From an uncultured Ectothiorhodospiraceae bacterium (lineage in GTDB: Bacteria; Pseudomonadota; Gammaproteobacteria; CAMYNG01), in contig CAMYNG010000003.1 in the NCBI GenBank assembly GCA_947259765.1, positions 35,540-99,539 on the forward strand: 64,000 bases of DNA. Direction: 5' to 3'. Both the position numbers and the translations under genes were made by a program. This document shows, one piece after another, positions 17,042-33,507 of this stretch (position 1 is its first letter; every line of letters begins with the position of its first letter). The notes beneath the pieces were generated by a model that did no database searches, was not told where the DNA came from, and saw only the letters and a program-made list of their open reading frames with translations.

Positions 17042-17524
17042 TCAGTCGCGCAAGTTGTTGAATTGCAGCGGCAAGCCAAAATCGGCATCGCGTAAAAGCG
17101 CCATTACGGCCTGAAGATCGTCCCGCTTTTTGCCACTGACCCGCACCTTGTCGCCCTGAATAGCAGCCTGAACCTTGAGCTTGGCATCCTTAATGGATTT
17201 AACCATTTTTCTCGCCGTGTCCGTTTCGATACCCTGGCGCACTGTAACGGTTTGGCGCGTGGACTTACCGCTCAATTCAATCTCACCCGTCTCCAGGCAG
17301 GCGATATCTATGCCGCGGCGATTTAGTTTGGTTTGTAGAATATCGAGCATTTGTTGCAGCTGAAACTCGGCCTCGGCCTGCATCAGAATCGTTGCATCGT
17401 TCAATGCAAATCGCGCATCGGCGCCCTTAAAATCAAAACGCGTACCCACTTCGCGATTAGCCTGGTCGACCGCGTTGTTTACTTCGTGCATCTCCACCTC
17501 GGAAACAACATCAAATGACGGCAT
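17042..17524 (-). CDS. yajQ: YajQ-family nucleotide / c-di-GMP-binding protein
   Basis: MPSFDVVSEV..EVNNAVDQANREV..RFDFKG is the canonical YajQ N-terminus. The size is 160 aa, and a GAGGA Shine-Dalgarno sequence precedes the ATG at 17524. Confidence 0.9.
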   Translation of the reverse strand: MPSFDVVSEVEMHEVNNAVDQANREVGTRFDFKGADARFALNDATILMQAEAEFQLQQMLDILQTKLNRRGIDIACLETGEIELSGKSTRQTVTVRQGIETDTARKMVKSIKDAKLKVQAAIQGDKVRVSGKKRDDLQAVMALLRDADFGLPLQFNNLRD

Positions 17525-17788
17525 AATTTTCCTCGTGTGCAACAACTTGAGTGCAGATTTTCACATTAACTGGAGTCGCAGATTTTCAGCCATACCCGGT
17601 GAAATTACCAGGTGTGTTAGCAAAAACGCGGTTCCCAGCGGCGACACAGTAACTCACGCTTTTTCAGCACTGGCCACATGGAACCAGAACAGGAACACGG
17701 TAAGGGGAAACAGCTGTGTTATAGTCAGCAAGCATTTACCGCCTGCCTGCAGCGCGTAGTTTTTTCCAGAAACAAGTTTAAAGAAAAC

Positions 17789-18574
17789 ATGAGTGCCCGC
17801 CGTTTATTCCGCTTTTTCCGTATAAGCATCCTGTTGACCATCCTCGTTATCGTCGCCGGCAGCACCTGGCTGACAAAGCTACGCACGACGGACTGGGACA
17901 GCCCCCTTTGGGTCGCCATTTATCCGATCAACGCCGATGGCAGCGAGGCCACCCATCGTTACATACAGACGCTGGGCAAAAGCTCATTCGCAACCATTGA
18001 GCAGTTTTTCTCCGACGAAGCCGCAGGCTGGGAAGTGCCCATTCGTAAACCGGTCTCTATTCAGGTTGCACCGGCGATTGACGATTTACCCCCCAGGGCG
18101 CCCAACGGTCAAAATATACTGAGCATTATGTGGTGGAGCCTGAAACTGCGTTATTGGGCCTTCAGCCGGGATACCTATAACGGACCGGCTGCGCCTGACA
18201 TTAAAATGTTTGTCGTCTACCATCGGCCCCGACGTGAGCCGTTGGATCACTCTGTTGGACTGGAAAAAGGTTTGCTTGGTATTGCCAACGTGTTCGCAGG
18301 CTCTGCCTATAGCGAAAAGAACAACGTCATCATCGCGCACGAAATTCTGCACACCGTCGGCGCAACGGATAAATATGACGCCGATACGCTTCCGCTGTTT
18401 CCTGACGGCTACGCCGAGCCGGATCGTGATCCACGCCACCCGCAACGTTACGCGGAAATTATGGGTGGCCGCGTCCCAGTTTCGGCCTCACGGGCCATTA
18501 TCCCGGCGAGCCTGCATCGCTGTGTTGTCGGTGAAAAGACCGCCGAGGAGATCAACTGGATCACCCCTCTTTGA
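17789..18574 (+). CDS. Membrane-anchored protein with HExxH zinc-peptidase-like motif
   Basis: N-terminal TM anchor (ISILLTILVIVAGSTW) and the motif HEILHTVGATDKY. I recognise no family. Confidence 0.55.
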   Translation: MSARRLFRFFRISILLTILVIVAGSTWLTKLRTTDWDSPLWVAIYPINADGSEATHRYIQTLGKSSFATIEQFFSDEAAGWEVPIRKPVSIQVAPAIDDLPPRAPNGQNILSIMWWSLKLRYWAFSRDTYNGPAAPDIKMFVVYHRPRREPLDHSVGLEKGLLGIANVFAGSAYSEKNNVIIAHEILHTVGATDKYDADTLPLFPDGYAEPDRDPRHPQRYAEIMGGRVPVSASRAIIPASLHRCVVGEKTAEEINWITPL

Positions 18575-18722
18575 CTTAACCTCCACCCGGAGCCGAATTC
18601 GATAAATTGACAACCGATAACCGAAACACGGCATAATTCCTTTTTCCTCAACCGGCGAAATAGTATAGTTATTGGCCACTTACGCTGGATGCGCGGATTT
18701 CGAACCAGGTATTGATACCGTT

Positions 18723-20033
18723 ATGCCAAACACACGTGCTTTGATCGTTGACGACTCGCGCGTTGCCCGCCTGGCCTTGAGCCGAATGCTGGAGCAGTTC
18801 GGCATGGATATCGACACCGCTGACTCAGGTGAGAATGCGGTTGAGTATCTTAGTAAAAACCAACCTGACGTCATTTTCCTTGACCACATGATGCCCGGCA
18901 TTGACGGTCTGGATACCCTGCGGACTATCAAGGCAAACCCCGCCACCGAAATGATACCCGTGCTGATGTATACGTCGAAGAAGAACGACGACTATGTCGT
19001 GCTTGCACAGGAACTTGGGGCCGCCGCAGTATTACCCAAGGAAGTTAGTCCCAACGATTTAAAACAAATTCTCGGGCTTATGAATCTGGCAGGCGAGGAA
19101 CGCGCGGCCACTCCAGGTGCAGGCGTTGCAATCGAGATACCTGACGACACTGACGAGATTATTGAGGCATCCGGCGCATCCAGCGCGGCTGGCATCGAGA
19201 CAACTCCGCCGCCGGCGATGGACGACATTCGGCGGCAACTTCGTGAAGAAATTCATCTGGCGCTCGGTGATGTTAGTGAGACGCTGGCCCGCCAAAATAT
19301 GCCCCTGAGTAACCGACAATTCTACATTCGGTTTGTGTTGATTATCGGCCTGCTGGTTGCTTTGCCGCTGTGGTATTACAACTTGTATGTCGCCGCGCAG
19401 GACTCGGAACAACGCAACGTCCAGGAAAACTCACGACTACTGGCGGATTTAACCAATCGGCAGGCACAACAACGCGAAATTAACGAAACGCTGCAGAACG
19501 AGTTACTCCGCTTAAATCAAACCGCAGCCGGCTTTACCACCACGCTGGCCGAAACGCTTAACTGGTCATTAAACACCGCCGGCAGCTACGAGTTCGGCTC
19601 GCGTCCGCTCGCAGGCGAGCGATTGGCGACACTACGCAATCTTATTACACGACTCAACGCGGCCGAGTTTGAAGGGCAGATCATTATTCATGTCTATCAA
19701 GGGCGATTTTGCCTGCAACGTACCGAATTTGATCGCCTGGTACCCGCCGCTGGCACTATGGGGCTGGACAAGTGCGACAGCGAATCCTTTTTTGACGACC
19801 GCAACCCGCAATCCAGCCAATTGATGTCTCTGGAGTTTGCCGACTTTGTACAAGCCATTCCGGCCATAACCCAAGACCGGATTTCTGTGGAGGTTGTGCT
19901 GCATGACCGTGATAAACCGGTAGTACCCTACCCCGATCGCACAGACGCTGTAACGGCCGCTAACTGGAATCGCGCTGCCCAACGTAACAATCGCATTCGT
20001 ATTGTTTTGGCACCCCAACGGCAGGGTGAGTAA
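18723..20033 (+). CDS. Response-regulator receiver, TM and OmpA-like C-terminal domain protein
   Basis: REC hallmarks (ALIVDDS, DVIFLDHMMPGIDG, LMYTSK), one central TM helix, and a C-terminal ..AANWNRAAQRNNRIRIVL resembling the OmpA/MotB end. Confidence 0.7.
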   Translation: MPNTRALIVDDSRVARLALSRMLEQFGMDIDTADSGENAVEYLSKNQPDVIFLDHMMPGIDGLDTLRTIKANPATEMIPVLMYTSKKNDDYVVLAQELGAAAVLPKEVSPNDLKQILGLMNLAGEERAATPGAGVAIEIPDDTDEIIEASGASSAAGIETTPPPAMDDIRRQLREEIHLALGDVSETLARQNMPLSNRQFYIRFVLIIGLLVALPLWYYNLYVAAQDSEQRNVQENSRLLADLTNRQAQQREINETLQNELLRLNQTAAGFTTTLAETLNWSLNTAGSYEFGSRPLAGERLATLRNLITRLNAAEFEGQIIIHVYQGRFCLQRTEFDRLVPAAGTMGLDKCDSESFFDDRNPQSSQLMSLEFADFVQAIPAITQDRISVEVVLHDRDKPVVPYPDRTDAVTAANWNRAAQRNNRIRIVLAPQRQGE

Positions 20034-20120
20034 AAGAGGTAGTCGGCAGAGCTTTAGACGTTCAGCTCCAGCAGCGTGAGAGACTCCGAAAGCGCAACCA
20101 ACAGAGCCAACGCGGCTCGT

Positions 20121-20510
20121 TCACGATTTGGAAACTTTAAACCGATTGACCTTGAAACCGGAGCGCGACAGCGCCTTGTGAGCATCAATTATTGCGGCAT
20201 CCAACTCCGGCATGTCGCCTTCCAGCTGACGACGTACAGACTCTGTTTCGGCCAGGTGAAAGGCCAGCGAGTTGCACAGGCGTTGTAACAACGGTGTTTC
20301 AACATCCGGAACATTGACCGAGGGTAATTCCTGCGCGCGCAGATCGGACGGCATACCCTTGTTGCATTTGATACAGCGGCGTTTCTGCCCCTGGGCAAAC
20401 TCGATTTCCGCAGTCGGCGCACTGCGTACATGACCGCACTCGAAGATTTCCTGCGTCAGGGTTTTAAATGCGGGGTGTTGGCGATATCCCACAATACGTC
20501 GTTCAACCAT
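20121..20510 (-). CDS. Hypothetical CGH..CxxC protein, paralogue A
   Basis: Clear paralogy with 20955..21455: VGYRQHPAFKTLTQEIFECGH vs VGFRAHPEFATLIQTVYECGH, RCIKCNKGMPSDLR vs RCAKCVTGMPADLR, and PLLQRLCNSLAFHL vs PLIGKLAKALLFHM. Confidence 0.6.
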   Translation of the reverse strand: MVERRIVGYRQHPAFKTLTQEIFECGHVRSAPTAEIEFAQGQKRRCIKCNKGMPSDLRAQELPSVNVPDVETPLLQRLCNSLAFHLAETESVRRQLEGDMPELDAAIIDAHKALSRSGFKVNRFKVSKS

Positions 20511-20641
20511 ATTTTCGTCCTGTTGTTGTTCTTACCCGTGATTATTCGGCATCCTGCCGGACACGTGTTCTTAAGCTTTAATTGTCGGATATTTAATTGC
20601 AGCCAATCCAACCCACCAAGCTGGCCAAACTGACTGATTTG

Positions 20642-20923
20642 CTAGTGTAAAAAATGAACGCCAATCCCGTAGCCTTCAACACGGGGCTCACAATGGGTTA
20701 CCCGGCCACGGGCCGCCACGGTGCGCACAGGCTTGCCCCTCGGTGCCAGGTTGACCACCACCTGAACCTCATCGCCAAGACCGGGTTCGCGATCCACCAG
20801 CAGGCCCATGCCTTCCATGGAAAAGTCCACGGATTTGCACGACAGACGTTGCCCGCCCGGAATGGTGACACTGACGGGTCTCTCGAAATCGATACGTCGG
20901 TTACGTCTTCGTTCACTAATCAC
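20642..20923 (-). CDS. Single-domain PilZ protein
   Basis: RRRNRR (RxxxR) and DFSMEG (DxSxxG) motifs. The size is 93 aa. Confidence 0.75.
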   Translation of the reverse strand: MISERRRNRRIDFERPVSVTIPGGQRLSCKSVDFSMEGMGLLVDREPGLGDEVQVVVNLAPRGKPVRTVAARGRVTHCEPRVEGYGIGVHFLH

Positions 20924-20954: not shown

Positions 20955-21455
20955 CTAAACCAAGGATAGATCAGGTAATTCATAATAAAACCCAACAGAG
21001 CGCTCATTTGCCGCCCCAGCTCGGGATGCGTTGCCGGCAATCACCTGCTCGCGTGAGGCATCAATGGGGTCGAAGCCCACTCCCACGGCCTCGAGGACGT
21101 CCCGGGCTTCCTTAATCGCATCTTCCACAGCAGGATCGGTCTGCCCGCGCATGTACAAGCGCTTTTCGGTAAAATTCATATGAAATAAAAGCGCTTTGGC
21201 GAGTTTGCCGATCAGGGGATGATCCACCAGCTTTAGATTACAGACCTCGCGAAACCCGCGACCTCGCAGATCTGCCGGCATACCGGTAACGCACTTGGCG
21301 CAACGGATTTCGGTAGTCGTGGGCGCCGTAAACCGCGCCAACTGACTGCTGTAGGCATGACCGCACTCGTAGACGGTCTGGATCAGGGTCGCGAATTCAG
21401 GGTGAGCGCGAAAACCGACCAGCTTGCTTTTTTCCGACTTTCCTTTTGAAACCAT
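20955..21455 (-). CDS. Hypothetical CGH..CxxC protein, paralogue B
   Basis: See paralogue A. This copy has an extra 35-aa C-terminal tail. Confidence 0.6.
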   Translation of the reverse strand: MVSKGKSEKSKLVGFRAHPEFATLIQTVYECGHAYSSQLARFTAPTTTEIRCAKCVTGMPADLRGRGFREVCNLKLVDHPLIGKLAKALLFHMNFTEKRLYMRGQTDPAVEDAIKEARDVLEAVGVGFDPIDASREQVIAGNASRAGAANERSVGFYYELPDLSLV

Positions 21456-23340: not shown

Positions 23341-24159
23341 TTACGGGTGATCCACAATCCACTTGCGAAACCCGGATTTGTCTTCTTCCGTGGCATCATC
23401 CCAAACCGCCTTGAGCTCATCCAGTATAGTAATATTGCGCCCGTCGCCCTCAACGCGACTGTCACCCGCAGTTGAGCTTGACGATGCCGCAGCGGCGCCG
23501 GCCGTTGCCGCCGTAACCACCGAGGCCGAACTTCCGCTAGCCGATGTGCCTGTGGTTCCGGTTGCGCCTGCAGCAGACGACTCGACAGGGGTCGGTGGCT
23601 GGCCTCCTTTTGGCGGTAAACCGCCGCTGGTATCCGCACCGGCGAGCCCCTGTATGCCTCGATTAACAAATGATTCGTAGGGTGAGGTACTCACAGCCGC
23701 GACCTTCTCGGACTGGTTCGGGTCCTTGATCCAGATTGCGAAATCGGTCGGAAAATTGATGGCGTCACTTTTGTTCACCGGCGCGTTGTGCTGAAGAAAG
23801 TACTTCTGCCCTGGCTTGAATTCCATTTTGAAATGATACATTTCGGTCGTAATGGATTCGACGGAGGTCGGATCACCCCAGAACTCGGTGTAGTACACGC
23901 TAACCACGCGCACGCCGGGTTTCAGGAGCATGTTATAGCCACGGTCAGGAACGTACGGCGCCTTGAGGCGCTGATCGTCCACAGCCAGCACCTGCAGACC
24001 CTCCTGCACCTTGAGGTGCACGACCTGGTCCGTCGGCAGTTCACCCTGGTACGTGATAACGGGGTCCTTAACCGAGCAACCGGCCGATACCAGTACCATT
24101 GCCACCACAGGCAGCCACACCGTGACCACGGGCAAATAGCGAAACATTCTAAAAATCAT
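23341..24159 (-). CDS. Lipoprotein (possibly DUF2057/YccT-like) with Ala/Ser/Thr/Gly-rich linker
   Basis: The internal ATG at 24159 gives a signal peptide plus lipobox (LVSAGC). The upstream part of ORF 23341..24327 looks non-coding. The conserved-looking C-terminal tail is ILDELKAVWDDATEEDKSGFRKWI. Confidence 0.55.
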   Translation of the reverse strand: MIFRMFRYLPVVTVWLPVVAMVLVSAGCSVKDPVITYQGELPTDQVVHLKVQEGLQVLAVDDQRLKAPYVPDRGYNMLLKPGVRVVSVYYTEFWGDPTSVESITTEMYHFKMEFKPGQKYFLQHNAPVNKSDAINFPTDFAIWIKDPNQSEKVAAVSTSPYESFVNRGIQGLAGADTSGGLPPKGGQPPTPVESSAAGATGTTGTSASGSSASVVTAATAGAAAASSSSTAGDSRVEGDGRNITILDELKAVWDDATEEDKSGFRKWIVDHP

Positions 24160-24442
24160 TAAGTTAACCCTTACGTTGGAAACCGCGGCCGGCCCACCTG
24201 CCGCCGGAGCAAACCCGGCAACCGTAACACAGACTGTAGCCCCTGAAAAAACAGCGCTGCCGGCGCTAATACCGGCGGCCGGAAAAAACGGCTTATGATA
24301 CCGCGGTTCTGCAGCGCTCCAAACCACTCTTTAAGGAACCCATCCGCCGCCTGCCGGTCACGAGGGCAACACTGAAAAAAAGTGTGTGTGGGGGCGAAAG
24401 GAATACGGTAGAAAGCGTCAGAGAATTAGAGACAGCCGTGGA

Positions 24443-26596
24443 TCAAGCACGGCGTTGTGCGAGGGATTTTCGTACCGATTCCATGGTTTTTTGCATGCTG
24501 ACTGAATCTGCCAACAGCTTTTCAAACTCGCCGGCGCTCAGGGGGCGGCTAAACAGGAACCCCTGGATGCTTTTGCACCCCAGGGCATGCAGGTAGGCGA
24601 GTTCCTGCGCGTTCTCGACACCTTCGGCCACCACATTCAGGCGTAAGCTGTGTGATAGGGCCATGATGGCCGTTACAATCGCGGCGTTATCGTTATCCTT
24701 GCGGTTATGTACATTGGATACAAAAGAACGATCGATTTTTAGCGTATTAATGGGAAAGCGCTGTAAATAACTCAGCGACGAGTAACCGGTACCAAAGTCA
24801 TCCACCGCGATACTGACGCCCATTTCCCTGAGTTTGCCGAGTACCGCAATATTCTTGTCCACATCATCCATCAGGCAGCTTTCGGTCACCTCCACCTCGA
24901 GAAATTCGGGCGACAGCTCAGTCTCCTGAATGGACTCCTGCACTGACGCAATAAAATCCTCATGGTTAAATTGCACGCCGGACACATTGACCGCCACGGG
25001 CACTGCGGGCAAACCCATTTGCTGCCAGGATCGATTCAGCCGGCAGGCCTCATGAAGCACCCAGGCGCCGACCTGAATGATAAGACCGGACTCCTCCAAT
25101 AAGGGGATAAACTCCAGCGGCGAAACCAGTCCATGCTCAGGATGCTGCCAGCGCAACAACGCTTCGGAACCGATTATGTCACCCGAGGTAGCGTTGACCT
25201 TGGGCTGAAAATACAGCTCGAATTCATCACGCCCCAAGGCCGTATGCAGTTCCTGCAGGCGTCTCTTCTGGCCGTGTATTTTCTCGTGGGTCGCAGCCTC
25301 GAAAAAATGATAACAGGCCACATCGCTGTTTTGCTTGGCGTGATACATCGCCACGTCTGCATGGCTGATGAGTTCCTCTATTCCCGGCCCATCATCTGGA
25401 AACACCGAGATACCAATACTGGCGCGCATGGGTACGTCCTTACCCTCGGTCGTGACCGGACTTTGCAGACATTGACATATGCGGTCGGCAAATACTTGCG
25501 CCTCACGCACTTCCGTTACCGCACGCATTACGATTGTAAATTCGTCACCGCCGATACGCGCAACCGTGTCGTAATCACGCATGGTCTTGCCGAGACGACG
25601 AGCCACTTCCACAAGCATCGCATCTCCAGCGTGGTGCCCGAGCGTGTCATTAACGATCTTGAACCGATCGAGGTCAAGATACATTAAAACGACTTTGTGA
25701 CCGGTACGCCGAGCTTCCTTGATGGCATTGGAAAAACGGTCCATAAACAAGGCGCGGTTGGGTAAGCCGGTCAGATGATCATGGGTCGCCTGCTTGTGAA
25801 TTTCGATCTGCTGGCGGTTGATTATGCCTTGTGCGTAACGCACCACCCAGAACAAGAGTACGTAGGTAAAAGCCGCGATTGCAATGATCCCCACCACGAC
25901 CTTTACCAGAGTAATTCGTGAGTCGGCGACTTGTTCTGACACGTCGCTGTAAATCTCGAACACGGCCTCAATGCTGCCAGCGTTATTTTTAATGGGCAGG
26001 TAACTGGATACAATATTTACGTCGGTTATAAGTTCGTCGCGAGCATAGAAAGTGTCGCGATGGGAAAATCGTGTGACAAGCTCGCCTTGGGCCGCCCGCG
26101 CAATCTCCTGGCTACCGAATTTATTCTGCCCGATCTCGTCGCGCGCCGTTGAAAACAAAATGAAGGCGTCGGGGGTATAAATTTTGACCTTGACGATCCG
26201 CGTATCGCGGGTGTGGTCACGAATACGATCATCTATGGTTGCGACGATCCTGCTTTCCTGCAACGCCGCAGGCCTGGCTGCCGCTGAAGCCAGCAAGTGC
26301 TGCTTGTTTTCCTGCCAGACATAATTGGACATCACCGTGGCCAAAGCCGCGTTCTTGCTCTCACTGAGTTCAAGCAGATTTTGATGAAAATAGCCGTTGA
26401 TCAAAAACGCCAGGGCAATACTCGTCGCCGCCATTATCGCCAGGGCCAGCCAGGCAAAGGGACGCAACAAATTAAACGGTCGAAAATCTCGGCTGTGTTC
26501 CACGGAAAATTCTTTCAGGGGTTTGTGTATTGACTCCCTGAAATATATCGGCCATTTGGCGTGGATAGTTAGCCGCACAGGCACTCCGGACGTCAC
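24443..26596 (-). CDS. GGDEF-EAL protein with membrane-flanked periplasmic sensor region
   Basis: RIGGDEF, EALLRW, DDFGTGYSSL, and two TM segments bracketing about 200 aa. The exact start is uncertain. Confidence 0.9.
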   Translation of the reverse strand: MTSGVPVRLTIHAKWPIYFRESIHKPLKEFSVEHSRDFRPFNLLRPFAWLALAIMAATSIALAFLINGYFHQNLLELSESKNAALATVMSNYVWQENKQHLLASAAARPAALQESRIVATIDDRIRDHTRDTRIVKVKIYTPDAFILFSTARDEIGQNKFGSQEIARAAQGELVTRFSHRDTFYARDELITDVNIVSSYLPIKNNAGSIEAVFEIYSDVSEQVADSRITLVKVVVGIIAIAAFTYVLLFWVVRYAQGIINRQQIEIHKQATHDHLTGLPNRALFMDRFSNAIKEARRTGHKVVLMYLDLDRFKIVNDTLGHHAGDAMLVEVARRLGKTMRDYDTVARIGGDEFTIVMRAVTEVREAQVFADRICQCLQSPVTTEGKDVPMRASIGISVFPDDGPGIEELISHADVAMYHAKQNSDVACYHFFEAATHEKIHGQKRRLQELHTALGRDEFELYFQPKVNATSGDIIGSEALLRWQHPEHGLVSPLEFIPLLEESGLIIQVGAWVLHEACRLNRSWQQMGLPAVPVAVNVSGVQFNHEDFIASVQESIQETELSPEFLEVEVTESCLMDDVDKNIAVLGKLREMGVSIAVDDFGTGYSSLSYLQRFPINTLKIDRSFVSNVHNRKDNDNAAIVTAIMALSHSLRLNVVAEGVENAQELAYLHALGCKSIQGFLFSRPLSAGEFEKLLADSVSMQKTMESVRKSLAQRRA

Positions 26597-26696: not shown

Positions 26697-27068
26697 CTAG
26701 TCGGAAAACTTGTCGTATTCGGAAAACATACCCCACTGGTCGCGTAGTTCTTTGAGACCATAGCGACCGCCGCGAAACTCATAATCGACAAGCTTTAGCG
26801 CAACGCCTTTGCGCGTCTGGCGCACAACCTTGGCGTTAAACAGAAGTTCCGGACTGGCCGAATCCACAAACTGTAAATTCACGTGACTACCCAATGGTAG
26901 GATGGGACAGTCCTTGAGCGTGATAAACACGCCACTATCGGAAATATCCATGGTGTTGCCTTCAACTTCACCAAAAACACTATGGCTCACCTTCACTCGG
27001 GCGCGGGTGCGATTGCGCCATTTCGTACGTCGTTCCTTCATTCCCATCCTTTTAACCCGGCTATCCAT
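26697..27068 (-). CDS. Single-domain PilZ protein (PilZ-1)
   Basis: RRTKWRNR and DISDSG motifs. The C-terminal GVALKLVDYEF..LKELRDQW is paralogous to PilZ-2. An alternative start at 27041 has an AGGA Shine-Dalgarno sequence. The upstream part of ORF 26697..27254 overlaps the preceding gene and is rejected. Confidence 0.7.
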   Translation of the reverse strand: MDSRVKRMGMKERRTKWRNRTRARVKVSHSVFGEVEGNTMDISDSGVFITLKDCPILPLGSHVNLQFVDSASPELLFNAKVVRQTRKGVALKLVDYEFRGGRYGLKELRDQWGMFSEYDKFSD

Positions 27069-27096
27069 AATCAATTTTCGTTCGCATAAGATTAGC

Positions 27097-27141
27097 GTAA
27101 AAATACCGGCCGACTCAACGCCCGAGTGGTCCGGGTATTTA
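27097..27141 (-). terminator. Possible intrinsic terminator overlapping the App1-like stop codon
   Basis: Minus-strand AAATACC(C)GG...CCGGTATTT followed by TT, a stem of about 9 bp with one bulge and a large (~21-nt) loop. Confidence 0.35.
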
Positions 27142-28254
27142 CCTGGTGGTAATTCGGTTAGGAAGTTCACTTGCGTGAGTAAACAACATCCAGCGGGATT
27201 TCGGTAGGCCGGTGAATGCCGCCCGTAACCTGTGCGAAGACACATCGTTATCATCGATTTTACGGATATAAATGGCCGTCACCTGCCCTGGAAACTCCCG
27301 CGCCAGCGAGGCGTAGATCTCGGCGTCACGTTCGCCGGAATCACCCACCAACACAAACTGCCGCTGCGGAAAGCGGCGCAGCAAGCTCCGAAGCACGGGC
27401 GGCTTGGTCTTGTCCGAGGACGCAAACAGGTTTTTTACCGTGCCGTCCTTGAGACGGAACGTTTTAAGATGGACGCTGCCGGCCGGAAACCCGGTATCCT
27501 GCATAAACTCACTCAACGCCGGATAGAGCTGCCAGGGTGAGGCGGATACATAGTGAAATCCTGCCCCGGCCTCGGCCCACTTTCGGTACACGGACGCCAT
27601 ACCCGGGACGGGGTTGAAGGGATGCAGGAACGTGTTGGCCAACAGCGCGGATTTATCCAGCACTTCGCTGTGTTTGATGGTGTCATCAATATCGGAAATG
27701 ACAGACACGCCACGCTCGGCAAGCAATTGAACCCGGCCATCGGTTACGTTGGCGCCGGAATTTCCTGTATCTATGCTAACACCCAGCCATTGCCCCGACT
27801 TACCCACCGCCGACTCGGGGGCCAGGCGAAGTGTGGTGCTGAAATGCCCGTTGGCGCCACTGGGTGGTGTTGTAACCTGTTGGCCACCGATGGTGAGCGC
27901 TAATTGCTTACCGCGCTCGTTGTCGACCAGAAACATTCGGGCACGACTGCGGAACGGCTCTTGTGTGATGGTCTCCTGCGACGCCCCCAGGCTTTCCAGC
28001 AACACGTCCATGAGCGTCGAACGCCACCAGGAATCCTCCTCCAGTTCAAACAGCCATCCGTGTAACGGGATGAGCCAATGGCCATCTTCTTTATGGGCGC
28101 TGGTGGGAAACACAATGGCACTTTCGTCCGCTTTCAAACCGGCGGCTCCGGCAAACGGAACGCCGAGCAGGATTAGCAGTGCCGCGGCGACAAGCAGGTT
28201 ACAAAAACGACCAACTGGTGCGCAGCTGAAGGGTATTCCATTTACTGGTCGCAT
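27139..28254 (-). CDS. App1-family (DUF2183) phosphatidate phosphatase-like protein, exported or membrane-anchored
   Basis: VISDIDDTIKHS (DxDxT), VLVGDSGERDAEIY and an N-terminal signal/anchor sequence. Confidence 0.7.
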   Translation of the reverse strand: MRPVNGIPFSCAPVGRFCNLLVAAALLILLGVPFAGAAGLKADESAIVFPTSAHKEDGHWLIPLHGWLFELEEDSWWRSTLMDVLLESLGASQETITQEPFRSRARMFLVDNERGKQLALTIGGQQVTTPPSGANGHFSTTLRLAPESAVGKSGQWLGVSIDTGNSGANVTDGRVQLLAERGVSVISDIDDTIKHSEVLDKSALLANTFLHPFNPVPGMASVYRKWAEAGAGFHYVSASPWQLYPALSEFMQDTGFPAGSVHLKTFRLKDGTVKNLFASSDKTKPPVLRSLLRRFPQRQFVLVGDSGERDAEIYASLAREFPGQVTAIYIRKIDDNDVSSHRLRAAFTGLPKSRWMLFTHASELPNRITTR

Positions 28255-28325
28255 TTTCTAAACGAGTCACGTAGTAAGATTTTCGCCAGGCTGTCAGACG
28301 ACGAATTAACTTGCCACGCCGGACC

Positions 28326-28664
28326 CTATTTCGCCAGCGTTTTTTGCGCATGCCATTGCTTGCGGAGTTCGTGAATATCGCGCATTTCGCCATTAACCTC
28401 ATAGTCAATGACTTTTAGCGCTATGCCATCGGCTTCGAGGCGCACCAGTTGGAGATTAAATACGATGGCGGGATTCCTGGATTCCGGCAGAACAGCCTTG
28501 AGTGTCTCGCCCGGCGACAAATCCGGTAGCGCTTCCAGCGCCACAAAAAAACCGCCATCGGCAATATTCCGGGTACGTCCGGTCATGGCCCCAAAAGCAG
28601 GGCTGTATAACCGTATCGCGGCATCCGTTGCGCGCCGTCTGTGCTTACGTCGCTCGTCGTGCAT
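28326..28664 (-). CDS. Single-domain PilZ protein (PilZ-2)
   Basis: RRKHRRR and NIADGG motifs, and the tail GIALKVIDYEV..IHELRKQW. Its ATG lies 3 nt after the acyltransferase stop codon. Confidence 0.75.
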   Translation of the reverse strand: MHDERRKHRRRATDAAIRLYSPAFGAMTGRTRNIADGGFFVALEALPDLSPGETLKAVLPESRNPAIVFNLQLVRLEADGIALKVIDYEVNGEMRDIHELRKQWHAQKTLAK

Positions 28665-28667
28665 GTA

Positions 28668-30152
28668 CTACTCGTCGTTACTGGAACTACTACTGCTGCT
28701 ACTACCGGCGCCAGGGCCGGTACCCGGTAGCGGTCCACCCGGAAAACCGCCGTGCACCAAATTAGCGTCCGCCTGCGGATTTGTTTTAGGCGCGTTGCCG
28801 GCCCCGACTCCCATTTTGCTTCGTGCCAGGCGCACCATGCTTGCCAACTCCCGTTCCAGACGCTTACGCCGAACCTCAAGGTAGGGTTTTAATTTGCGTT
28901 TGCGTAGAAACAGGAAAAAGACACGTAGGTTTTCCCAGATGCGATGACGCTCCCGCTTGAACATGATTGCCGCCGCAGCCGAAACTGGAAGCGAAAAAAT
29001 ATAGGCCGCTGTCGTTGCCACACTGAAGTACTGCGCCACCAAAACGATTTGTAGACCCCAGAAAATTATAAACAAGGCAAGGCCAAAAACCATTTTCGCA
29101 GTGTCGTACTGATCCGTTCCGCGCGCCAGCAGGCGTGCCAGATGCCGCGTAAGCACGTACGGCACGATCGAATTAAATATGCCCCACGCCGCCAGCGGCA
29201 ACAACAAGAAAAGAATGGAAATGCTGCGCAAGAGAAATCGAGTGACCACGGAGGTTTGATAGTGGATAGTCAGGTGATAGTCGCGGATATGCCAGTTGCG
29301 GCACAATCGTTCGAACTGAATCAGATGACGCCTGAGTTGCGCAAGCTGTTCCGGAGCCTGTTCTTTCAATTCTTCCAGACCCTCACAAACACGCTTCATT
29401 GTCTGAAAACGTAGCGCCATGCTCCGACGCCGATACTTGCCATGCCGCATGGCAATGAAGCGTTCCAAGCTCGATACCAGCTGGAGGTCAACCGTAGTGT
29501 CGACATTAATGGTGAGACGATACAGGTGTTCCTGAATTTTCTGTGTAAGCCGTTGCACCTCAGACGAATCATCGCCACCGACGAAATCATCGTAGTTGAT
29601 GGGATTCCCCACTTGTACAAACACCTGGCTACGAAACTTTCCCTTATGGGTGAAATTCAAACCCACCGGTATAACCAACGGCGACACGCCGTGTTGTTTG
29701 GCGCCCAGCACCATGCGCGCAGCACCCGTTTTAAATTCTCGCAAGGTGGGATCAGAGTGACTTTGTCCTTCTGGAAAGATCAGCACTATTTGCCCTGTAG
29801 CAAACAGGTCATAAATACGTGCAAACGCATCCTCATTGCTTGGTGCGACACCCTCAGAATCCTCGCGACGATACACCGGCACCGCCTGGATAAGCGACAA
29901 CACCGGCTTTAAAAACGGATTTTGAAACAGTCCACTACGCGCCAGGGGATGAACCGTTCGCCTGGACAAGGCCTGAATGACCACCGCATCCGCCAGCGCG
30001 TTGGTGTGATTGGCACACAGAAGTACCGGGCCCTGCGCAGGAAGCAGCCCCAGTCCATCTGCTTCGCATCGACTGTAGAAAACAGCGACGGTTGCGCGGC
30101 AAAACCAATGCCAGCTTTGCTGTAACACACCGTCTCGAGATGTCTCAGCCAC
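28668..30152 (-). CDS. PlsC-superfamily glycerolipid acyltransferase with C-terminal TM region
   Basis: Motif I variant CANHTNALAD, motif III IFPEGQSH, three or four TM helices after residue ~300, and a poly-Ser C-terminus. Confidence 0.75.
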   Translation of the reverse strand: MAETSRDGVLQQSWHWFCRATVAVFYSRCEADGLGLLPAQGPVLLCANHTNALADAVVIQALSRRTVHPLARSGLFQNPFLKPVLSLIQAVPVYRREDSEGVAPSNEDAFARIYDLFATGQIVLIFPEGQSHSDPTLREFKTGAARMVLGAKQHGVSPLVIPVGLNFTHKGKFRSQVFVQVGNPINYDDFVGGDDSSEVQRLTQKIQEHLYRLTINVDTTVDLQLVSSLERFIAMRHGKYRRRSMALRFQTMKRVCEGLEELKEQAPEQLAQLRRHLIQFERLCRNWHIRDYHLTIHYQTSVVTRFLLRSISILFLLLPLAAWGIFNSIVPYVLTRHLARLLARGTDQYDTAKMVFGLALFIIFWGLQIVLVAQYFSVATTAAYIFSLPVSAAAAIMFKRERHRIWENLRVFFLFLRKRKLKPYLEVRRKRLERELASMVRLARSKMGVGAGNAPKTNPQADANLVHGGFPGGPLPGTGPGAGSSSSSSSSNDE

Positions 30153-30226
30153 ATTCGTATTCCGCGCAGAAATCCAAAACCGGAAGGCTTTTAAAAATAT
30201 GTTGTGTCAGTATACAAACAGTGCGT

Positions 30227-30538
30227 TCATTCCGCGTCGTCATCGATAAATTGAAACATGACACATTCATCGGTGCTGCGAACAAACTTTATCGTATAGA
30301 GAAAATCAATATTCACCGGCCGCATGAGCATGGTGCCGGTTTCGCTGCAGTGATCGGCGGTTTTCGGATCGTTAAGGGCTACACAGACGCCGCCATCGGA
30401 TAAGTCTCGAATACATCCTTCCAGCGTACCAAAGCTGTCGTGGTAAAGCCGGACCTGGGAATCCAGCGAGATGCGTTTATGTACACGTCGTTCAACCATA
30501 ACCGGTACCTCGAACCAAGCCCGGACGTCATGCGACAT
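30227..30538 (-). CDS. Single-domain PilZ protein (PilZ-3)
   Basis: ERRVHKR and DLSDGG motifs. An alternative start lies at 30499. Confidence 0.7.
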   Translation of the reverse strand: MSHDVRAWFEVPVMVERRVHKRISLDSQVRLYHDSFGTLEGCIRDLSDGGVCVALNDPKTADHCSETGTMLMRPVNIDFLYTIKFVRSTDECVMFQFIDDDAE

Positions 30539-30589: not shown

Positions 30590-30901
30590 TCAACCTCCCG
30601 GCGGCCGGCGATAGATCTCAGCGGAGCACTCCTGGTGTTGTGCTGCGGGCGTTGTTTTTGCTTTATTGGAATGTGGCGAGACACAGGCGCCGCTTGCACA
30701 ACCGAATTTAGAATTGATATAAAAAAAGGTGGGTAACAACAGCGGGAACGAGGCCACCAGGATCCATTCCAGACCGCCGGTGAAATTCTCTGGTTCAAGC
30801 AACCAGATAGAGAACGACTGTCCCGAAAAGTAAAACAGTATGGCGAATAAAAACCACACCAGGTTTCTCTGCCAGCCGGTAATGGCACGAAACACGATCA
30901 T
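30590..30901 (-). CDS. Small membrane protein
   Basis: Two or three hydrophobic helices (LVWFLFAILFYF, LEWILVASFPLLLPTFFYI). The start is uncertain, with alternatives at 30961 and 31057 that would overlap the exonuclease gene. Confidence 0.45.
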   Translation of the reverse strand: MIVFRAITGWQRNLVWFLFAILFYFSGQSFSIWLLEPENFTGGLEWILVASFPLLLPTFFYINSKFGCASGACVSPHSNKAKTTPAAQHQECSAEIYRRPPGG

Positions 30902-30947: not shown

Positions 30948-31613
30948 TTAGATCCCGGCATCCCGTTGCAGGGCGATGAGGCGGGAAACGGGCGTGTTTT
31001 CGCCGACCAACCGGCGCGCGAGACGGCAAAATATACGGCTTGTAGCCTCGGCATCACCCATGGCGGAATGCCGGTTTTTTATTTGCACATCACATGCCAC
31101 TGCGACTTCGTCAAGGGAATAGTGTCCCAAACGACCACTGAGACTGAGATACATCAACATGGTGTCAAGCAGGGGCGCCTGTAGCTGCCCACCCGTCATT
31201 GGCTTAAGCGCACGATTAAGGAACCGGACATCAAAGGCGATATGGTGTCCGACGACAACATCGTCGCCTACGAATTCCAGTACCTCGCCAATAACCTCGT
31301 TTATTGGCGGCGCATGCTGCACGTCTGCGTCGCTAATACCATGAATAGCGGTAGAGGTGGGTGGTATTTTTCGCCCAGGGTTGACCAATTGTGAGTACAC
31401 TCGACCGGTCGCCTCTAGCCCTGAAAGCTCAAGCATGGCAATGGACACAATTTCATCGCCCGCATAGGCGCGAAAACCTGTTGTCTCGGTATCCAACACG
31501 ACAAAACGGGTCTGGGCGACCGGTCGCTTCAGACGTCGGCGTCGTGCAATCGTCTCCGCATTTCTTAACTGCGCCAGTTTTAGACGTAACTTGTCCAACA
31601 CTGAGGAAAACAC
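30948..31613 (-). CDS. DEDDh 3'-5' exonuclease (DnaQ/epsilon-like)
   Basis: Exo I VVLDTETTG, Exo II VVVGHHIAFDVRFL and Exo III HSAMGDA. Confidence 0.85.
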   Translation of the reverse strand: MFSSVLDKLRLKLAQLRNAETIARRRRLKRPVAQTRFVVLDTETTGFRAYAGDEIVSIAMLELSGLEATGRVYSQLVNPGRKIPPTSTAIHGISDADVQHAPPINEVIGEVLEFVGDDVVVGHHIAFDVRFLNRALKPMTGGQLQAPLLDTMLMYLSLSGRLGHYSLDEVAVACDVQIKNRHSAMGDAEATSRIFCRLARRLVGENTPVSRLIALQRDAGI

Positions 31614-31635
31614 GTCTGTCTTGTACCTTTTTTAA

Positions 31636-33507
31636 CTAGAGTGCTTCACGACCGAAACGGCCCTGCAGTACATCCTGAAAACGTTTTATTGCACGCATGG
31701 CCATACGCAAAGTGGATCGCACTTCGGCCGAAAGCGTTTCCGGGTCCAGCAGGTTGTTGACCTCCTGGCCGTGTTCAAGCTGGCCTAGCTGATGGGCAAG
31801 CAACAAGTCCAAAATTTCCTCAAATGCGAGGCTCACTGACGCGACCAATTCAATATCCAAAACGCCCTGGCGCACGAGTGCATTGAGTCGATCTAGCGTA
31901 TTACCGGCGCTTATTCCTTCGGCAAGCGAAAAGATCCGCGCCGCGTCACATACGATCCGCAAGCCGTTTCGTTTAAGATCAATCTTGCCTTTCCGTAATT
32001 CATCCTCGGCCGTGACCAGGCGGTTGAAAAAGCCAAGGGCAGGACGACCTTCGGCATCCTGTTCTGCCATAAATTCGAGTATTCGTGGCTTGTGTTTAAT
32101 TTTTTCAAGCAAAAAGTAGCGTAGCGATTCCGAGAGCTGTGCATCTCCTACTAACGGCGCAAAGTCAAAAACGATACTGGACCAGCGGGCCGCCTTCTCG
32201 TTGGGATGTTCGACCAAATAACTGATTTGTTCGCGCCACTGACGGCTTGTTTTTCGAAAGCGCGGATTGCGTGCCATGATGTCGCCCGGGCACAGCGGGT
32301 ATCCGATCCGATCCAGGTTAAGATTTAATTCCTCGCTGAAAGACTCGAACCATTGTGACTCTTCCGTCCGTAACGGACCGGCCTGATCTTCGATTATAAT
32401 TCCGTTATCTTGATCCGGGCCCAATAGCATTTCGCCACGCCCGCCGGACCCCATGATCAGCAAGGTAAATGCTCGCGGTGCCTGGCCACGACCTTCTGCA
32501 ACCCGTCTCGCTTCGGTCAGTTCAGCGCAGCGTCGTTGCAAGGCAAGATGCAGTTCGCTTATCACACGTACAGCCTGTGTCGCCCGGCGATGACTTTCCC
32601 AGATCTCGCGTACGGCACCCGGAAGTTCGTCATGCAATTGTTTCAATTTTTCAACCGAATCCGCCTCACGAATGTCGGTTAACAGGATGCTTCGCTGCAC
32701 GCTGAAAGCACGCAGAATATCGGCTTTGGAAATAATACCCAGAGGTTGATTGCCGTCTACAACGATCAGATATTTTAGATGCTTATTGATTTGCAACTCA
32801 TCGGCCTGCCACAACGGCAAGCCTGCAGGCACCTTGACCGGCGTTTCGAGAATCGCGGTGTCGATTGGCTGATCAGCGGTGGCAGGATGTTCAAGCAGTG
32901 CTTTCGCCAAACTGGCATAAGTTAACACTCCGAGAAGATGACCGTCGGAGTCAAGCACACCAAGGCTACCAATATTGCCGTGTTGCATACGCGTAAAGGC
33001 GCTACGCAAACTATCGGTTTCTACGCAGCTAATCAGTGGCGCCTTCATGACAGAGCTAACCGGCTTACCCAGCGAACCACTAATTCGGTGCCGCAGACGA
33101 CTTCGGTTTCGTAACCGGTTACTGATGATTCGATTCAGGGTTGTCGAAAGATCGGGATGCTCTGTCTCAAGACGACCGAGTGTCGCGTCAGACAATTCCA
33201 GCACCGTGGAATCTCCCAGGCTGGTTACCGTGGAGGTATATGCCTCTTGGTCCAAATAGTTGGACAAGCCCAGAATCGCACCGGGTCCCTGGCGTCGCAC
33301 ACTTCCGTCAGCGCGTAACATTTCCATCTCGCCAGTGTAAATAATGTATATGGCCTGCTTGTAGGGCTCACTGGCCGCAAACAATTGCACGCCGTCGTGC
33401 AACTGCGACACCCCGGCCTGCTCCGCAATTGCCTGGACTGTTTCCGGCCGAAGAGCGGCAAAGGTATGTGTATCCGCCAGATGTTTTGCGTCAATGGTTA
33501 CAGTCAC
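31636..33507 (-). CDS. cNMP-binding, CBS-pair and DUF294 putative nucleotidyltransferase protein
   Basis: N-terminal CAP_ED unit, two CBS units, and LLIMGSGGRGEMLLGPDQDNGIII (the nucleotidyltransferase G-S-x-G-R..DxD motif) followed by the DUF294 C-terminal region. Confidence 0.85.
   Translation of the reverse strand: MTVTIDAKHLADTHTFAALRPETVQAIAEQAGVSQLHDGVQLFAASEPYKQAIYIIYTGEMEMLRADGSVRRQGPGAILGLSNYLDQEAYTSTVTSLGDSTVLELSDATLGRLETEHPDLSTTLNRIISNRLRNRSRLRHRISGSLGKPVSSVMKAPLISCVETDSLRSAFTRMQHGNIGSLGVLDSDGHLLGVLTYASLAKALLEHPATADQPIDTAILETPVKVPAGLPLWQADELQINKHLKYLIVVDGNQPLGIISKADILRAFSVQRSILLTDIREADSVEKLKQLHDELPGAVREIWESHRRATQAVRVISELHLALQRRCAELTEARRVAEGRGQAPRAFTLLIMGSGGRGEMLLGPDQDNGIIIEDQAGPLRTEESQWFESFSEELNLNLDRIGYPLCPGDIMARNPRFRKTSRQWREQISYLVEHPNEKAARWSSIVFDFAPLVGDAQLSESLRYFLLEKIKHKPRILEFMAEQDAEGRPALGFFNRLVTAEDELRKGKIDLKRNGLRIVCDAARIFSLAEGISAGNTLDRLNALVRQGVLDIELVASVSLAFEEILDLLLAHQLGQLEHGQEVNNLLDPETLSAEVRSTLRMAMRAIKRFQDVLQGRFGREAL

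Follow-up and report, generated by a model that had tools for sequence, protein, structure and literature searches.

Does a cluster in which three PilZ genes alternate with two genes for lipid enzymes, directly upstream of a gene for a GGDEF-EAL protein, place membrane lipids under the control of cyclic di-GMP (c-di-GMP)? The cluster lies on the minus strand (30538-24443, six genes) of a 64 kb stretch of DNA from an uncultured Ectothiorhodospiraceae bacterium (assembly GCA_947259765.1, contig CAMYNG010000003.1), hereafter called the window, whose open reading frames (ORFs) and translations were examined. The original prediction had given each lipid enzyme, an acyltransferase and an App1-type phosphatidate phosphatase, a dedicated PilZ adaptor of its own. 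The comparisons described below lead us to favour, tentatively and at somewhat less than an even chance, a narrower answer: the cluster would be a lineage-specific c-di-GMP module set up on an older tandem array of PilZ paralogues, with the acyltransferase as a PilZ-regulated output and App1 merely co-expressed.

Gene content of the cluster

The ORFs were present at the coordinates first given for them, in the minus-strand order PilZ3, acyltransferase, PilZ2, App1, PilZ1 and GGDEF-EAL. All six products passed the Pfam gathering thresholds in a profile search, including those of PF07238, PF01553 and PF09949, and the identities originally proposed for them were borne out (three PilZ domains, PF01553, APP1_cat, and GGDEF plus EAL). 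With the preferred start codons (see below), the genes are:

30227..30499, minus strand: PilZ3, single-domain PilZ protein, 90 aa (PF07238, 23.2 bits; orthologues)
28668..30152, minus strand: acyltransferase, membrane-anchored, AGPAT/GPAT fold, 494 aa (PF01553, 61.7 bits)
28326..28664, minus strand: PilZ2, single-domain PilZ protein with a C-terminal helix, 112 aa (PF07238, 31.8 bits)
27139..28254, minus strand: App1/DUF2183-type HAD phosphatase with a putative N-terminal signal peptide, 371 aa (PF09949, 168.4 bits)
26697..27041, minus strand: PilZ1, single-domain PilZ protein with a C-terminal helix, 114 aa (PF07238, 38.3 bits)
24443..26596, minus strand: GGDEF-EAL membrane protein, 717 aa (Pfam GGDEF 163 bits, EAL 243 bits)

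Conservation of the acyltransferase-PilZ core

A species-level genome scan with an acyltransferase profile yielded 80 loci, in four of which (L006, L019, L041 and L060) a PilZ gene lies beside the acyltransferase gene. A specialised PilZ hidden Markov model (HMM), applied at E<=1 to all 80 loci, detected no further PilZ neighbours, a search that very divergent PilZ types could escape. In the high-GC loci L041 and L060 homology-anchored ORFs were used; greedy longest-ORF calls gave spurious antisense ORFs there. Together with L081, L084 and L105, these loci and the window make eight in which the core acyltransferase-PilZ2-PilZ1-GGDEF/EAL is found. The eight fall into three sub-clades, and the core is kept while acyltransferase identity drops to 48-56%.

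PilZ2 lies directly downstream of the acyltransferase gene in all eight loci, and PilZ1 is always directly upstream of the GGDEF-EAL gene within the acyltransferase-linked clade (orthologues of the latter follow PilZ1 in L006, L019, L041, L060, L084 and L105). In L041, L060 and L081 the gene immediately before the acyltransferase is a PilZ3 orthologue, and such orthologues are also found in more distant arrays. The layout is PilZ3-acyltransferase-PilZ2-PilZ1-GGDEF/EAL-PilZ4 in L041 and L060, and acyltransferase-PilZ2-PilZ1-GGDEF/EAL in L006, L019 and the metagenome loci L084 and L105; App1 does not stand between PilZ genes in any of them. Only L081, whose acyltransferase is 66% identical, has exactly the gene order of the window, with one additional ORF after App1. 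Because 17 kb of L081 run collinear with the window, this locus is not independent and its agreement adds little. A survey of neighbourhoods retrieved the association of the acyltransferase with PilZ and GGDEF-EAL genes in eight loci, and the alternation with App1 in the window and its syntenic relative alone. The additional ORF of L081 (10029-10619) overlaps the stop codon of App1 and encodes 196 aa, with a hydrophobic segment at the N-terminus; it has no Pfam match and no counterpart in the window.

Spacing also pointed to the acyltransferase and its two PilZ neighbours. In L041 and L060 the stop codon of PilZ3 overlaps the start of the acyltransferase gene, whose own stop codon in turn abuts on or overlaps the start of PilZ2; such overlaps are typical of co-translated partners and suggest that these three are such partners. 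In the window, the PilZ2 ATG was found, as stated originally, 3 nt past the acyltransferase stop codon (GAG TAG TAC ATG). Stop-codon read-through joining the acyltransferase to PilZ2 was considered and rejected: the two share a reading frame in the window (TAG TAC ATG) and in L060, and this relation is not kept in L041, L081 and L019.

In a tree of the acyltransferases (neighbour-joining, no support values) the window, L081, L006, L019 and L084 formed one clade. L041 and L060 were basal in a larger clade, here called the upper clade, which also holds loci without PilZ.

The PilZ and GGDEF-EAL proteins

The clustering of PilZ genes is not due to chance: a family-tuned PilZ HMM found only four PilZ ORFs in the window, three of them within 3.8 kb. 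PilZ3 barely clears the PF07238 cut-off (23.2 against 22.5 bits), and its assignment is backed by clear orthologues; a PilZ3-like protein of locus L091 scores 26.5 bits. Kinship of PilZ1 and PilZ2, first proposed from a common C-terminal tail, was confirmed (37% identity over 101 aa, the tail included), and PilZ3 is 30% identical to PilZ2. PilZ1 is the best conserved member of the array, with 56-76% identity in the acyltransferase-linked clade and 44-49% in the distant arrays. The predicted structure of PilZ2 (mean predicted local distance difference test, pLDDT, 79) fits the six-stranded PilZ beta-barrel; its best match in the PDB was PA0012 with c-di-GMP, followed by the PilZ domains of BcsA, PA4608 and Alg44.

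All three proteins had been credited with both c-di-GMP-binding signatures, and this stood in part. RxxxR is present in each (RTKWR in PilZ1, R-KHR-R and R-HRR-R in PilZ2, RRVHKR / R-VHK-R in PilZ3). The second signature, [D/N]xSxxG, is canonical in PilZ1 (DISDSG) and PilZ3 (DLSDGG). In PilZ2 it reads NIADGG, which lacks the serine and had been included under a wider form (D/N-x-S/A-x-x-G). The serine position is occupied by A or G in the four closest PilZ2 sequences, with the flanking positions invariant, and the serine is retained in the farther orthologues of L006, L019, L041 and L060 (NISDGG or DISDGG).

The GGDEF-EAL protein has two hydrophobic membrane segments around a loop of ~160 aa. 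Its motifs are intact (RDYD-TVARI-GGDEF, with the RxxD I-site 5 residues upstream, EALLR, DDFGTGYSS, KIDRSF and EGVE).

The acyltransferase and its association with c-di-GMP enzymes

The acyltransferase consists of an N-terminal catalytic domain, a helical middle part, C-terminal hydrophobic helices at residues ~300-400, in agreement with the membrane region first noted there, and a low-complexity tail. The CANHTNALAD and FPEG motifs are readable in the translation, and block III (F126, P127, E128, G129) is invariant across the family. Block I departs from the canonical H-x4-D: the invariant residues are H49 and D55, that is H-x5-D, and alignment to PlsC requires a one-residue gap within this motif. 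Catalysis is still plausible, since the His/Asp pair is retained. The protein stayed below the cut-offs of the NCBIfam equivalogs TIGR00530 (55.3 against 102.95), OlsA-type NF052553 (25.1 against 300) and Aas-type NF006386 (57.4 against 1221). When the family profile was compared with the PDB, only PlsC of T. maritima (5KYM, E 2.4e-6) was matched. An AlphaFold model (pLDDT 79) found PlsC (5KYM, E 8e-6, TM score 0.58) and human GPAT1 as the best folds in the PDB, and the same structure search gave no counterpart of the helical region and the long hydrophobic helices. By its modelled fold, the enzyme is of the glycerolipid type. The family (~450 aa, >1000 database members) comes from uncultured Gammaproteobacteria (Acidiferrobacterales, Chromatiales, Candidatus Thiodiazotropha, Arenicellales), SAR324 and Acidobacteriota. 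The tail of the window protein (residues 452-494, at 28668-28802) is Gly/Pro-rich with a run of nine serines and disordered in the model; it is absent from L081, L006 and L019, and different extensions are found in L041 and L060.

The link of this enzyme to c-di-GMP signalling extends beyond the loci with PilZ genes. In the upper acyltransferase clade, the DNA up to 3 kb from the acyltransferase gene holds 1.21 GGDEF/EAL genes per 10 kb; at 3-8 kb these loci have 0.09 per 10 kb, and around the acyltransferase genes of the other clades the value is 0.06 per 10 kb. This amounts to a density ~13-20 times higher than farther out or near other acyltransferases, in a count of genes and not of independent events, as the loci are related. 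Mere abundance of GGDEF genes was ruled out for the acyltransferase clade of the window by this distance-stratified count. At least four architectures were seen, some of them without PilZ:

GGDEF gene directly downstream of the acyltransferase: L002, L008, L009
divergent GGDEF gene 1.5-1.8 kb upstream of the acyltransferase: L004, L016, L103, L106
DAHL-PAS-GGDEF-EAL gene directly upstream of the acyltransferase: L104
layout with PilZ genes: window, L006, L019, L041, L060, L081, L084, L105

Such recurrent gene association supports a tie between this acyltransferase subfamily and c-di-GMP signalling.

A second recurrent neighbour is a hydrolase. In 25 of the 80 loci an exported alpha/beta hydrolase of ~243 aa is encoded on the same strand ~18 nt downstream of the acyltransferase (for example L047, 9347-10078), with a GHSLGG-type nucleophile elbow and weak matches to PGAP1, Palm_thioest (palmitoyl-thioesterase) and DUF676. 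The acyltransferase is thus recurrently paired with exported hydrolases, several of them lipase/esterase-like and App1 among them, a pattern that would fit deacylation/reacylation or headgroup remodelling and is only suggestive. A GDSL lipase gene lies downstream in L105. In L001 and L002 an ORF of 283-285 aa just upstream looks, by eye only and with no profile search behind it, like a member of the endonuclease/exonuclease/phosphatase group.

Age of the PilZ array

A metagenome scan with a PilZ1 profile added thirteen loci (L085-L097), whose PilZ1 orthologues are 44-49% identical; a PilZ3 orthologue is present in most of these loci as well. In L096 PilZ3, PilZ2 and PilZ1 follow one another directly in tandem, separated by 54 and 89 nt. 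Several of the distant arrays carry, between PilZ3 and PilZ1, an oppositely oriented pair of genes for an ODP-family protein and a 210 aa protein, followed by a rhomboid gene and another PilZ gene. The distant loci also hold a YajQ-like gene, a gene for a 260 aa membrane protein and a further PilZ gene, all three with orthologues in the window at 17042-20923; because these are common to both, the distant loci and the window are truly syntenic. The further PilZ gene of the window lies apart from the cluster:

20642..20923, minus strand: fifth single-domain PilZ protein (PF07238, 53.5 bits)

In L091, L092 and L096, the PilZ that comes after the array is the orthologue of this fifth PilZ. In a neighbour-joining tree PilZ1, PilZ3 and the fifth PilZ formed clean orthologous groups across all these genomes. 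These comparisons indicate that the array is older than the cluster and that PilZ genes occur independently of the lipid enzymes. The interleaved genes vary by lineage: the ODP pair, the acyltransferase, App1, or the 196 aa ORF of L081. The tandem array would then serve as a landing site where the output genes taken up differ between lineages.

Several genes of this older neighbourhood were recorded. The ODP di-iron gene (PF19583, 247 bits) and its 210 aa partner are found in L087, L088, L091 (6376-7739, for example), L093 and L097; in L105 (2169-2978) an ODP gene and a rhomboid gene lie upstream of the acyltransferase cluster. The YajQ-family protein of the window (17042-17545, minus strand; PSFDVVSEV...TRFDFKG) has orthologues near the distant arrays L091, L096 and L097, and YajQ homologues are reported to bind c-di-GMP in Xanthomonas. 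The fifth PilZ gene is flanked by genes for paralogous Cys-containing proteins of 129 aa (20121-20510) and 166 aa (20955-21455), all on the minus strand, and the trio is present in L081 at 66-70% identity. A plus-strand gene (18672-20033), with the YajQ region on one side and the fifth PilZ gene on the other, encodes 453 aa; its N-terminal domain looks receiver-like by eye (DDSRVARL...DHMMPGIDG), and its long C-terminal part is uncharacterised.

The App1 phosphatase

The APP1_cat match covers the whole model (1-154 of 154; 168.4 bits), with a weak LNS2 match besides. The DIDDT and GDSGERD motifs, quoted originally and present in the translation, line up with DxDxT and GxxxRD of the lipin/Pah structure 6TZY. 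The N-terminus has a positively charged n-region, an 18-residue hydrophobic core and the sequence AGA|AG, and 88 of 116 App1 homologues have an N-terminal hydrophobic segment ending in AxA directly before a conserved (S/D)LKADE. From hydropathy and motif, rather than from a SignalP run, the family is probably exported and periplasmic, and App1 would therefore be beyond the reach of a cytoplasmic PilZ protein.

The window and L081 are the only loci in which App1 stands between PilZ genes. In L006 it lies 2.3 kb upstream of the acyltransferase, and it is not found in L084, a close relative of L006; proximity of App1 to the acyltransferase hence arose twice, inside the array (window/L081) and 2.3 kb upstream (L006). 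Four App1 homologues on long contigs (48-52% identity) have unrelated neighbours, with no PilZ, acyltransferase or GGDEF gene. No characterised bacterial member of the App1 family was found in the literature searched, where DUF2183 was named only twice and incidentally. App1 is probably a lineage-specific insertion in the PilZ array, and its alternation with PilZ genes appears to be mostly a lineage-specific accident.

Start codons, transcription and neighbouring genes

Although the ORFs first listed for PilZ1 and PilZ3 are present, their starts are less likely than later ones. Homologue N-termini and Shine-Dalgarno spacing favoured 27041 (AAGGA-N5-ATG, MKERR...) over 27068 for PilZ1, and 30499 (GAGGT-N7-ATG, MVERR...) over 30538 for PilZ3, and the later starts are probably the true ones. 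With PilZ1 starting at 27041, the gap between App1 and PilZ1 is 97 nt and not 70, so that the original count of three gaps of about 70 nt each no longer holds. The GGDEF-EAL protein may truly start near 26503, where the alignment of its L081 orthologue (61% identity) begins.

The genes of the cluster are co-oriented with intergenic gaps of 3-100 nt. Terminator-like signals numbered 19 (13.9 +/- 3.7 expected), no excess over background and none of them convincing inside the cluster gaps, and the layout from PilZ3 through GGDEF-EAL is compatible with one operon. An Rfam scan of the whole 64 kb gave no family at the gathering score, and no tRNA, riboswitch (the c-di-GMP type included) or small RNA. 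Between the window and L081, the ~70 nt gaps aligned no better than shuffled sequences did, apart from an 11-mer close to the start of GGDEF-EAL, and no conserved element was seen in them.

One small gene upstream of the cluster may be added to the list, its membership of the unit being uncertain:

30596..30877, minus strand: small two-helix membrane protein, ~94 aa, between the DnaQ-like gene and PilZ3 (L081 orthologue 97 aa, 52% identity; no Pfam family matched)

Farther upstream (30948-33507, minus strand) are a cNMP-binding/CBS/DUF294 nucleotidyltransferase gene and a DnaQ-like exonuclease gene. The same gene types lie directly upstream of the acyltransferase in loci of Candidatus Thiodiazotropha that have no PilZ genes (L047, 2924-7053, in the opposite order; L037, 1-540), and this neighbourhood may be an older location of the acyltransferase. 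Directly 3' of the GGDEF-EAL gene, a gene for a DUF2057 protein (23341-24327, minus strand; 56.7 bits) with a long Ala/Ser/Thr/Gly-rich low-complexity stretch is kept in L081.

Interpretation

In one branch of uncultured Gammaproteobacteria the acyltransferase gene stands between PilZ3 and PilZ2 and the GGDEF-EAL gene after PilZ1; in the immediate lineage of the window, App1 was added between PilZ2 and PilZ1. In the module as we picture it, the GGDEF-EAL protein would sense a periplasmic or membrane cue and set a local level of c-di-GMP. PilZ1 and PilZ3, with their canonical motifs, would bind the nucleotide, and PilZ2 has possibly turned into a c-di-GMP-independent adaptor. PilZ2, PilZ3 or both would dock on the cytoplasmic face of the acyltransferase and alter glycerolipid or lysolipid acylation, and PilZ1 may instead, or also, partner the GGDEF-EAL protein. 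App1 would be exported and tied to the rest by co-expression only, acting on lipid phosphates at the periplasmic face with no dedicated PilZ protein. A wider proposal, which we rate as rather unlikely, is that this subfamily of membrane-anchored AGPAT/GPAT-fold acyltransferases is an unrecognised c-di-GMP output, reached through co-translated PilZ3 and PilZ2 adaptors in one branch and through adjacent cyclases in sister branches, with c-di-GMP, the second messenger behind the motile-sessile switch, also rewriting the acylation of membrane glycerolipids.

Several observations weigh against a PilZ-regulated acyltransferase. Its gene has no PilZ neighbour in 76 of the 80 species-level loci. None of the thirteen distant arrays contains an acyltransferase, App1 or GGDEF-EAL gene, and because they persist without the acyltransferase the PilZ proteins must have other partners. 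The gene most tightly coupled to the acyltransferase, PilZ2, is the one that has lost the motif serine. GGDEF neighbours occur without PilZ in L002, L008, L009 and L104, so that the link between the acyltransferase and c-di-GMP may not run through PilZ proteins. The acyltransferase tree lacks support values, and the loci are phylogenetically related, so that counts of them overstate independence.

The original model, in which the acyltransferase has PilZ3 or PilZ2 and App1 has PilZ2 or PilZ1 as its own regulator, and phosphatidate is remodelled to diacylglycerol under c-di-GMP, now seems very improbable to us. It draws on the alternating order in the window and L081 and on the appearance of App1 near the acyltransferase in two configurations, but L081 is merely a syntenic copy over 17 kb, and App1 does not lie between the PilZ genes in L006, L019, L041, L060, L084 and L105. 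The signal peptides of the App1 homologues separate this enzyme topologically from cytoplasmic PilZ proteins, homologues elsewhere have no PilZ neighbours, and the triplet of PilZ genes is older than the enzymes or is found in their absence. The idea of a separate adaptor for every lipid enzyme is accordingly not supported: App1 is probably exported and rarely in the array, and the array is found without either enzyme. A more serious competitor, unlikely in our view and yet to be reckoned with, is that the PilZ array serves other targets, such as the GGDEF-EAL protein or motility and chemotaxis proteins, and that the enzyme genes were inserted in a permissive co-transcribed region and share timing at most. 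The syntenic distant arrays have ODP, rhomboid and YajQ neighbours in place of these enzymes, different genes are interleaved in different lineages, and the adjacency of PilZ1 and GGDEF/EAL is conserved as well as that of the acyltransferase and PilZ2. What speaks for the acyltransferase as a target nevertheless is the stop/start overlap of PilZ3, acyltransferase and PilZ2 in L041 and L060, which together with the 3 nt spacing in the window suggests selected co-translation, the persistence of the acyltransferase-PilZ2 adjacency down to ~50% acyltransferase identity, and the independent enrichment of the acyltransferase clade for GGDEF/EAL neighbours. That same enrichment could be explained without PilZ proteins, if the helical region of the acyltransferase bound c-di-GMP or a cyclase, or if the lipid state produced by the acyltransferase and App1 were read by the GGDEF-EAL sensor with the PilZ proteins as downstream outputs. 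We give this only a small share of the probability. GGDEF or GGDEF-EAL genes are directly beside the acyltransferase in the four PilZ-free loci named above and nearby in L004, L016, L103 and L106, and the loop between the two membrane segments of the GGDEF-EAL protein is uncharacterised. However, the cyclases of the PilZ-less loci are not orthologous to the GGDEF-EAL protein of the window, and no known c-di-GMP-binding motif is reported for the acyltransferase, none having been searched for.

Comparison with known systems

Motility, adhesins, exopolysaccharides and the cell cycle are known to be under c-di-GMP control. PilZ adaptors that act directly on enzymes of membrane glycerolipids have not been described to our knowledge, and the original statement that no system with this layout is known stood: literature searches for PilZ or c-di-GMP with acyltransferase, phosphatidate phosphatase or phospholipid synthesis returned no such system.

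The closest relatives of the cluster proteins are the single-domain PilZ adaptors of P. aeruginosa (MapZ/PA4608-CheR1, HapZ-SagS and PA0012). Like the PilZ proteins of the cluster, they are small stand-alone beta-barrels with an N-terminal RxxxR and D/NxSxxG, and they act by binding a partner. The PilZ2 model matches PA0012 with c-di-GMP best, and PA4608 and the CheR1-MapZ complex were matched as well. The cluster differs in that three or four paralogues are arrayed and PilZ2 lacks the motif serine. We know of no lipid enzyme that is a partner of the P. aeruginosa adaptors, and none was found in the literature searched. In Xanthomonas, a PilZ protein that lost c-di-GMP binding serves as an adaptor and binds the GGDEF-EAL protein FimX (PilZ-FimX-PilB). 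The adjacency of PilZ1 and GGDEF/EAL and the degenerate PilZ2 are reminiscent of this system, whereas the catalytic motifs of FimX are degenerate and those of the cluster protein intact (GGDEF, I-site and EAL), and the cluster has no pilus ATPase gene.

With PlsC (T. maritima, 5KYM) and E. coli YihG the acyltransferase has PF01553, the FPEG block and the fold in common. It is twice as long as PlsC, with an extra helical region and hydrophobic helices, has H-x5-D, and scores far under the PlsC, OlsA and Aas cut-offs. YihG is an accessory lysophosphatidic acid acyltransferase whose loss or overexpression is reported to affect membrane composition and flagellar formation (PMC7277886). App1 of the cluster has the full APP1_cat domain and the DxDxT and GDxxxRD motifs in common with yeast App1 and the lipin/Pah HAD phosphatases. 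Yeast App1 is cytosolic and peripheral, unlike the bacterial family, which has a putative signal peptide and is probably periplasmic.

A precedent for post-translational c-di-GMP control of an acyl-transfer enzyme is Caulobacter HfsK, a c-di-GMP-binding effector of an acyltransferase family that modifies the holdfast polysaccharide (PMC5362036). HfsK differs from the arrangement proposed here in that it binds c-di-GMP itself, belongs to another acyltransferase superfamily and acts on a polysaccharide and not on a glycerolipid. What the window adds to PilZ adaptor signalling is a candidate for a new class of target, in a layout that is real and undescribed in the literature searched. If the acyltransferase is a true target of PilZ proteins and c-di-GMP, membrane lipid remodelling would join the outputs of this second messenger, and a function would be given to a widespread uncharacterised acyltransferase family of ~450 aa found in sulfur-oxidising and symbiotic Gammaproteobacteria, Acidobacteriota and SAR324.

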